Assembly: GCF_024223415.1 (NCBI RefSeq)
Contig: NZ_CP100500.1
Source of the DNA: Escherichia coli
GTDB lineage: Bacteria > Pseudomonadota > Gammaproteobacteria > Enterobacterales > Enterobacteriaceae
Direction: 5' to 3' (one strand)
Length of the DNA stretch: 64,000 bases
Numbering within the stretch: the stretch's first letter is position 1; the number at the start of each line of letters is the position of its first letter. Below the pieces are notes generated by a model. That model saw nothing but the letters and a program-made list of their open reading frames with translations, made no database searches and was not told the origin of the DNA. Of this stretch, positions 34,356-34,831 are shown piece after piece. The position numbers were made by a program, and so were the translations under genes.

Positions 34356-34831
34356 CAGTGGCGTATATTGCCATAGGCAGCAATCTGGCCTCTCCGCTGG
34401 AGCAGGTCAATGCTGCCCTGAAAGCATTAGGCGATATCCCTGAAAGCCACATTCTTACCGTTTCTTCGTTTTACCGCACCCCACCGCTGGGGCCGCAAGA
34501 TCAACCCGATTACTTAAACGCAGCCGTGGCGCTGGAAACCTCTCTTGCACCTGAAGAGCTACTCAATCACACACAGCGTATTGAGTTACAACAAGGTCGC
34601 GTCCGCAAAGCGGAACGCTGGGGACCGCGCACGCTGGATCTCGACATCATGCTGTTTGGTAATGAAGTAATAAATACCGAACGCCTGACCGTTCCGCACT
34701 ACGATATGAAGAATCGTGGATTTATGCTGTGGCCGCTGTTTGAAATCGCGCCGGAGTTGGTGTTTCCTGATGGGGAAACATTACGTGAAATACTCACTTC
34801 ACTAGCAGTACCACAACCTGCCATCTGGTAA
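34352..34831 (+). CDS. folK: 2-amino-4-hydroxy-6-hydroxymethyldihydropteridine pyrophosphokinase
   Basis: 159-aa [53 protein letters not shown]...; overlaps pcnB stop by 4 bp. Confidence 0.96.

Follow-up and report, generated by a model that had tools for sequence, protein, structure and literature searches.

Results

Gene content of the region between folK and panB

The 64,000-nucleotide stretch of E. coli DNA analysed here (the window) was found to carry hrpB, thpR, sfsA, dksA, gluQ, pcnB, folK, a seven-gene chaperone-usher operon, panB and panC, in the gene order of the K-12 yad region and in reverse orientation (Table 1). FolK of the window matched the HPPK family (PF01288) over residues 5-134 (E = 1e-38, 132.6 bits against a cutoff of 25.7) and the solved E. 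coli HPPK structures with E = 2e-96. Its catalytic core, residues 1-141, is identical to that of K-12 HPPK, a characterised enzyme, and because the HPPK domain stops at residue 134, the variable C-terminal tail described below lies outside the Pfam domain.

Table 1 Features of the folK-panB region of the window. Positions are those of the window; aa, amino acid sequence identity.
Feature	Position	Strand	Remarks
folK (HPPK)	34352-34831	+	ORF, 159 codons plus stop; protein WP_000215140.1 in the RefSeq annotation of an identical record
Core-like part of folK, codons 1-141	34352-34774	+	protein identical to K-12; 7 synonymous differences
Crossover interval, this lineage	34760-34778	+	19 bases, TGTTTCCTGATGGGGAAAC; overlaps codons 137-143 and fully contains F138-E142; includes the FPDG motif
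Type-specific FolK tail, codons 142-159 and stop	34775-34831	+	own sequence relative to K-12
AT-rich spacer, folK to major fimbrial subunit gene	34832-35172	+	29% GC; presumed operon regulatory region
59-bp segment	34845-34903		absent from O157:H7, O55:H7 and AHM8C160RI; 11-bp direct repeats TTATTTTCTTA at 34845-34855 and 34904-34914
Major fimbrial subunit (yadN position)	35173-35769	+	Pfam Fimbrial; aa 40% to K-12 YadN, 100% to O157, 86% to E. albertii
Periplasmic chaperone (yadV position)	35856-36581	+	PapD_N, PapD_C; aa 61% to K-12, 91% to E. albertii
Outer-membrane usher (htrE position)	36623-39223	+	Usher, PapC_N, PapC_C; 60% to K-12 HtrE, 98% to O157, 89% to E. albertii
Three minor subunit genes (yadM, yadL, yadK positions)	39237-41025	+	RefSeq annotation; Pfam Fimbrial in two of three; aa 41-47% to K-12
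Tip adhesin (yadC position)	41037-42149	+	Pfam Fimbrial over the C-terminal pilin domain; 81% to O157
Hairpin CGCACCAGAG-TTCTG-CTCTGGTGCG 3' of the adhesin gene	42173-42197	+	possible operon terminator, read from the sequence
Right junction: ancestral panB promoter block and leader	42215-42284	+	TTGCCC, 16 nt, TAGAAT at 42223-42250; predicted promoter-like
panB and panC, mosaic right flank	42285-43942	+	91.8% identity to K-12 over 42272-44215

The operon lies between folK and panB and has the Yad order of major subunit, chaperone, usher, three minor subunits and adhesin. Its proteins with K-12 matches are 40-61% identical to those of K-12 Yad, and a tblastn search of K-12 with the adhesin gave no match. 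Relative to O157:H7, with the usher (98%) and major subunit (100%) compared to strain SS17, identity is 97-100% for the major subunit, chaperone, usher and fourth subunit, 92% for subunit 2, 66% for subunit 3 and 81% for the adhesin. The same four proteins are 86-91% identical to those of E. albertii, and the others 70-78%. The usher clusters with those of O157:H7, O145:H28 (98% identity) and E. albertii (89%), and by its close usher and major subunit the operon belongs to an O157:H7/E. albertii type. Under a strict definition of Yad (the K-12/EC958 type), which requires an usher at least 80% identical to HtrE (PMC13245861), it falls outside, the usher being 60-61% identical to those of K-12, ETEC2265 and E302. 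By locus and gene order it is a Yad-position operon, and by HtrE it is not Yad in the strict sense. All phylogroup E and most phylogroup D strains were reported as 'Yad-negative' at the 80% HtrE threshold (PMC13245861) because the window-type usher falls below it; in fact the folK-panB site of these phylogroups is occupied by a second operon type, one like that of E. albertii.

At the right side, a simple terminator scan did not call the hairpin at 42173-42197, which has a weak T run. A one-genome-per-species scan (80 loci) gave 66 Enterobacteriaceae species with a 159-aa FolK and no fimbrial operon, in which panB begins ~120 bp after folK, and the block ATTGCCCC...TGTTAGAAT was present in this spacer in the twelve operon-free species inspected (of 66-67). 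Because the promoter block of the ancestral spacer is kept at 42223-42250, the operon lies downstream of the folK stop codon and ahead of the conserved panB promoter, and the right edge of the type-specific block is at about 42198-42272. The promoter-like block of the window is nearer to the Citrobacter/Klebsiella form than is the K-12 version (…CCACCAATGTGACTGATAAAAT).

Beyond panC, the minus strand has a 69-aa ORF (44038-44247) similar to the C-terminal end of RpnC, the nuclease encoded next to it (44316-45188). NZ_CP084096 has a partial pseudogene annotated at this position, and the ORF may be what is left of a second copy of rpn.

A K-12-like folK with a divergent 3'-end

The window ORF was compared codon by codon with folK of K-12 MG1655 (NC_000913.3, 157253-157732), also of 159 codons, whose translation ends in FPDGEMLRQILHTRAFDKLNKW. 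Residues 1-141 are the same in both, the seven synonymous differences being at 34585-34678. From codon 142 (34775) onwards, 16 of the 18 codons and 11 of the 18 residues are unlike K-12, where the counterpart of codons 142-159 encodes EMLRQILHTRAFDKLNKW, and overall length and the terminal Trp are unchanged. Blastn against K-12 gave 97.9% identity over 32084-34791, and close similarity to K-12 resumed at 42272, 13 bp before the panB ATG; between 34791 and 42272 there were weak matches alone, to the usher (67%) and the chaperone (71%). The sequence-only reading of this DNA had marked 34780-34831, the last 17 codons of folK, and had stated that the last ~17 residues differ from the K-12 C-terminus, that the rest is K-12-like and that the length is unchanged. 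The MG1655 sequence has the K-12 C-terminus given there and bears out all three statements, and the abrupt fall in identity to K-12 that the reading proposed to look for downstream of folK is seen after 34791.

The nucleotide sequence of the tail is 52% identical to K-12, 94% to O157, 100% to strain XH990 and 59% to Citrobacter koseri. The 901 bp from 34300 to 35200 are 100% identical in E. coli O78 strain 3 (NZ_CP084096). Over the first 180 nt of folK, the window and most E. coli are 96-100% identical, as are most E. coli to one another; the corresponding values are 84-88% for the introgressed H22/Nissle type and ~80% for comparisons across genera.

Position of the junction

Informative sites were partitioned for the triplet of window, K-12 and O157:H7. 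Upstream of 34760 the window agrees with K-12 against O157:H7 at 32 sites and with O157:H7 at 3, and downstream of the crossover interval it agrees with K-12 at 1 site and with O157:H7 at 24 (Fisher p = 1.9e-12). The last site before the junction common to K-12 and not to O157 is 34759, and the first common to O157 and not to K-12 is 34779. The phylogenetically incompatible sites are thus significantly clustered on either side of 34760-34778, the pattern of a mosaic junction. O157:H7 has in addition a private divergent folK tract of ~240 bp (34532-34771), 85% identical to all other E. coli, which the window is without. Carriers of the window-type tail (XH990, Combat11I9, O145:H28, LP5-1 and AHM8C160RI) have differing folK haplotypes upstream of it, and in O145:H28 and LP5-1 the K-12/B1 states are kept up to 34783. 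The junction, as judged by hand inspection of ~15 hand-picked sequences, is best described as a narrow zone, 34760-34792, varying with the comparator strain. These data support the view that the passage from core to fimbrial locus within the 3'-end of folK is a real recombination junction; the crossover may have occurred in the ancestry of the window or in that of O157.

Tail types in E. coli

Nine E. coli genomes picked across the spread of matches disclosed at least five types of FolK tail, each followed by a spacer and an operon variant of its own, and all parting right after the conserved TTTCCTGATGG (FPDG). The K-12/B1 tail reads E(M/T)LR(Q/E)(I/V)LHTRAF(D/E)KL(N/S)KW and the window/O157 tail consists of 12 residues followed by (P/L)QPAIW; the remaining ones are those of E302 (TILENLLRKNKFHELNKW), CFSAN018748 (TALGNLLKINKFHELNKW) and H22/Nissle (LSLVEALQAKGFNELDKW). 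Queries composed of tail plus spacer were run against 5,426 complete E. coli genomes. The K-12/B1 query type was assigned to 3,063 of these, E302 plus CFSAN to 1,020, H22/Nissle to 561 and window/O157 to 422, the four types covering 5,066 genomes, so that these counts leave out ~360 untyped genomes. Nucleotide identity of the tails between E. coli types is 33-57%, below that between Citrobacter koseri and Salmonella diarizonae (69%). In O157:H7, O55:H7 and AHM8C160RI the folK stop codon is changed from TAA to TAT and FolK has 160 aa, ending ..WY, as against 159 aa in the window. A literature search for FolK tail polymorphism or for a folK/yad recombination boundary found nothing specific; the 'folK' matches in PMC4866539 proved to be the surname Folkesson and not the gene.

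Some loci are further altered. In strain LP5-1 (NZ_CP101866; 9230-10429 of its locus sequence) an IS1 adjoins the window-type FolK tail and most of the fimbrial operon is deleted, just a 3' fragment of the adhesin gene being left before panB. In the locus type of strain CFSAN018748 (11291-13912 of its locus sequence) the operon is shorter by one minor subunit gene and has an usher gene with an internal stop, annotated as a pseudogene. Several cattle O157 isolates have a Mu-like prophage in the spacer between folK and the operon, as in O157 strain 137 (NZ_CP028626; 9990-18717 of its locus sequence), where Mu transposase, Gam and others were recognised.

Ancestry and homology of the tails

The operon-free species have the tail consensus ISLRAVLTQLGAEKPARW, with conserved L144, L148, L151, A153, K155, P156, A157 and W159, of which P156 and W159 are invariant. 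The window tail keeps six of these eight positions and has a mean of 7.65 identities in 18 to the outgroup tails; the K-12 tail keeps four, has lost P156 and has a mean of 5.36, and B2-type tails are further off than K-12 (3.3-4.2 of 18). The final 15 nt of window folK match the folK 3'-end of Klebsiella spallanzanii at 14 positions. The window tail is thus nearer to the ancestral form, and the AT-rich K-12 tail is derived.

In-frame comparison of the window and K-12 tails gave 28 identical bases in 54, a value reached by none of 10,000 shuffles, with L144, L148, W159 and the length retained. A frameshift relation between the two was considered and rejected: other frames encode unrelated peptides with stops, and a gapped alignment was no better than the in-frame one. 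The window tail is accordingly homologous to the ancestral FolK tail, though diverged from it, and does not represent foreign sequence.

Tails of ten operon-bearing species (E. whittamii, three Pseudocitrobacter, four Citrobacter, Superficieibacter and one E. coli representative) had 5.6 of 18 identities to the operon-free consensus as against 11.1 in operon-free species (Mann-Whitney p = 1.5e-6), a comparison biased by the phylogenetic non-independence of the species and by the use of the operon-free set to derive the consensus. The folK bodies of the two groups did not differ (p = 0.61). Within Citrobacter, operon-bearing tails had 4-5 identities to the consensus and operon-free tails 9-13.

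The spacer and the tail-plus-spacer block

A promoter scan of the spacer gave one promoter-like site (35012-35041), no more than shuffled sequences give, and the scan of the folK tail gave no site. A structured RNA or a terminator in the tail or spacer was rejected: no Rfam family reached its threshold, the best hit, a chance snoRNA match, scoring 18 bits where 55 are required, and nothing resembling a terminator was seen. The direct repeats bordering the 59-bp segment suggest that it was lost from O157:H7, O55:H7 and AHM8C160RI by deletion between them; among the matches listed for the window type, those of O157:H7 and O55:H7 genomes align from query base 145 on. A 24-codon ORF (34872-34946, plus strand; MIRLFHPPRKNYFLILLLTSPLTH), 8 nt after a Shine-Dalgarno-like GAGG, is probably not a gene, its ATG being ACG in O145:H28 and most of it lying in the O157 deletion.

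Sliding identity between K-12 and E302 was 89-98% in the folK body and 94% at the yadN 5'-end, and 32-62% in the tail and spacer between them. Between the window and E. albertii, 34785-35066 is unalignable while both flanks are 85-87% identical. Both pairs therefore display the signature of a switched intergenic region, an unalignable spacer with conserved genes on either side. The ushers of K-12 and E302 are 98% identical and their tails 39%, and the correlation of tail with usher distances is weak (Mantel r = 0.21, p = 0.02). Simple co-inheritance of the tail with the whole cassette thus has only the weak Mantel result in its favour and the K-12/E302 mismatch against it, and a single 'cassette swap' is too simple a description because the tail does not track the whole cassette. 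Tail and distal spacer diverge together as a block that is in part independent of the genes for the fimbrial structure, the block being either exchanged separately or subject to unusually fast evolution in place.

Mosaic flanks

Mosaic, raised diversity extends well past the operon on both sides. Windows of 100 bp in panB-panC vary from 82% to 100% identity among strains, and over pcnB-folK and panB-panC the lowest such windows are 73-83% identical between E. coli strains, or 82-83% when the H22 type is left aside. Patches that are 82-90% identical to K-12 and other strains occur in panB-panC and in gluQ (32498-32597).

In strain H22, of the type of Nissle 1917, the 3' half of pcnB and the entire folK gene (equivalent to 33400-34770 of the window) are 73-87% identical to other E. 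coli. This tract looks like a longer import from a distant lineage accompanying the locus type.

Structure and composition of the tail

The AlphaFold2 model of FolK (mean pLDDT 81) has a short helix at 144-151, with L144, L148 and L151 at i, i+4 and i+7, and, at 157-158, a C-terminal beta-bridge. An alignment of 44 sequences shows no substitution of W159 and hardly any of L144 and L148. The tail is, as far as alignment and predicted fold indicate, partly constrained yet tolerant of change. Every solved E. coli HPPK structure recovered in a sequence search has the K-12-type tail.

GC content is 52-53% in the folK body, 44% in the window tail (GC3 22%, against 55% in the window folK body), 33% in the K-12 tail, 17-19% in B2-type tails and 26-31% in the spacers, and is 60% in both tail and body of the operon-free species. 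Across 34700-35099 of the window it passes from 52-58% through 41% to 28%. GC3 of the tails is 11-39% versus 51-55% in the folK body. Tails of operon-bearing Citrobacter and Pseudocitrobacter are divergent, yet not AT-enriched. That the AT-rich tails came from a donor genome that was itself AT-rich found no support, the linked divergent folK bodies of O157 and H22 having a normal GC3 of 51-53%.

In K-12 an H-NS-associated 'promoter island' has been described at yadN/folK (156927, length 379; PMC3661553), and this position set against the K-12 gene coordinates shows that it overlaps the last ~53 nt of folK. The yad operon is repressed by H-NS (PMC13245861). The overlap permits the reading that selection on the DNA shapes the tail.

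Discussion

Origin of the FolK tail

The window carries an O157:H7/E. albertii-like operon type with the matching FolK tail and spacer. It is likely that folK codons 142-159 are the left-most part of the strain-variable fimbrial block between folK and panB, joined to K-12-like core sequence upstream of 34760-34778 and exchanged by homologous recombination. The sequence-only reading had proposed a junction between a K-12-like core and a divergent yad-type locus inside the folK 3'-end, and the partition of sites (32/3 against 1/24, p = 1.9e-12) upholds it. Its description of this point as the recombination boundary of a variant fimbrial locus needs qualification: the boundary stands but is not strain-specific, as all E. 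coli locus types examined diverge after FPDG; the label 'variant' is apt relative to K-12 and not otherwise, the window tail being the more ancestral-like when set against the 66 operon-free Enterobacteriaceae; and the locus is divergent but not uniform, since tail and distal spacer vary partly apart from the fimbrial structural genes.

As to mechanism, we infer that the conserved folK body on one side and the panB promoter and gene on the other would serve as homology arms for exchange between lineages, either of the whole operon or of the tail-plus-spacer block alone. The catalytic HPPK domain, being strongly constrained, would stay similar enough to recombine, and the 18 C-terminal residues, being partly constrained, would diverge at about the rate of the AT-rich spacer next to them. 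Crossovers would then pile up at the last conserved stretch, the FPDG codons, and every type would show a sharp boundary at this one position; the boundary would be common to all types because the constraint on the FolK protein presumably drops there.

The same difference in constraint could act alone: under relaxed selection, and with mutation biased towards AT beside an AT-rich region, the tail would evolve fast where it stands, with no recombination breakpoint. Such a process would account for a boundary whose codon is shared by all E. coli types and recurs in other genera, for the end of the Pfam HPPK domain at residue 134, for Escherichia tails of 17-44% GC beside bodies of 52-53% (the two being equal in operon-free species), and for a divergence that peaks exactly where the spacer is unalignable too. 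It would not account for the site pattern (p = 1.9e-12), which together with the private 240-bp tract of O157 calls for one or more crossovers no further than ~20 bp from the tail, nor for near-identical tails on differing upstream backgrounds, nor for tails of operon-bearing Citrobacter and Pseudocitrobacter that are divergent without AT-enrichment. As a full explanation it is rather unlikely, and most plausibly it complements recombinational exchange instead of replacing it. The reshuffling of tail type and flanking haplotype across the species tree is already in part evident.

A dual use of the last ~54 nt of folK, as coding sequence and as part of an H-NS-bound fimbrial regulatory region in which selection on the DNA drives the residue changes, is quite unlikely. 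The K-12 promoter island reaching ~53 nt into folK (PMC3661553), the repression of yad by H-NS (PMC13245861), the joint divergence of tail and spacer between genes that stay similar and the low GC3 of the tails (11-39% against 51-55%) are all in keeping with it, but the window tail is just mildly AT-shifted (44% GC) and a simple promoter scan of it was empty. Selection on the DNA is disfavoured as a general cause because tails of operon-bearing Citrobacter diverge without being AT-rich. A wider form of this idea, that the folK tail is part of a mobile H-NS-targeted fimbrial regulatory module (tail plus spacer) exchanged or reshaped by DNA selection across Enterobacteriaceae, is likewise distinctly doubtful. 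If it were true, the C-terminus of FolK would be dictated by the downstream fimbrial regulatory block, and the K-12 HPPK of all solved E. coli structures would have a derived tail with P156 lost.

The abrupt drop in composition and the loss of similarity to K-12 at the tail could also be produced if insertion of a fimbrial island had overwritten the native folK 3'-end by non-homologous replacement, giving an unrelated C-terminus; this is very improbable and in large part refuted. The tails are homologous (28 of 54 bases, 0 of 10,000 shuffles, with length, L144, L148 and W159 retained), the window tail agrees with the consensus at six of eight positions and with Klebsiella spallanzanii at 14 of its last 15 nucleotides, and the insertion maps 3' of the stop codon. 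An artefact, whether a sequencing or assembly error or a wrong K-12 sequence taken for comparison, can be dismissed, K-12 MG1655 having the C-terminus given by the sequence-only reading and the variant occurring in 422 independent complete genomes.

The analysis gives the variable folK-panB locus base-level limits, 34760-34792 at the left and ~42198-42272 at the right, which are useful for typing, pangenome and recombination analyses. HPPK is an antibacterial drug target, and its C-terminus occurs in at least five forms in natural E. coli; the practical consequence of this is probably small.

Comparison with known systems

The Yad operon of K-12 and ExPEC (yadN-yadV-htrE-yadMLKC) and the window operon are alike in their folK-panB position, seven-gene order and domain families, and differ in that the window proteins are 40-61% identical to those of K-12 and the adhesin is without a match. 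The Yad locus has been described as core-associated and as the counterpart of Salmonella Sta, which occupies the same locus (PMC3559732), and allelic variation with recombination of yadC between phylogroups is reported for it (PMC13245861); in ST410 a yadC allele was replaced together with a recombination-derived replacement of the fhu operon (PMC6715731). In EHEC O157:H7 the locus is called 'yad' (PMC7098969; Gonyar et al. 2024 as cited in PMC13245861). It is of the same type as that of the window, with 97-100% identity in the major subunit, chaperone, usher and fourth subunit and 94% in the FolK tail. O157:H7 differs in minor subunit 3 (66%) and the adhesin (81%), is without 59 bp of the spacer, has a FolK longer by one residue (..WY) and keeps its 240-bp divergent folK tract where the window has K-12-like sequence instead.

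A housekeeping gene that is mosaic and hitchhikes beside a hypervariable surface locus is known from gnd, next to the O-antigen rfb cluster. The rfb and fim regions are recognised recombination hot regions of E. coli (PMC4866539), and the window likewise has mosaic flanking core genes, consistent with exchange of a cassette by crossovers in conserved flanks. Unlike in hitchhiking of the gnd type, here the variable block enters coding sequence, changing 11 of the 18 C-terminal residues of an essential enzyme, so that its effect goes beyond a rise in synonymous diversity.

Horizontal regulatory switching was reportedly described by Oren et al. in 2014. Switched intergenic regions are described with Piggy (PMC5890482), and the folK locus resembles them in that conserved genes flank a spacer unalignable between strains (32-62% identity). 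The difference is that the switched block takes in the last 18 codons of folK. The locus is, on the whole, an ordinary recombination mosaic, in which a surface-structure cassette is exchanged beside a mosaic flanking gene, and the kind of event is already known.
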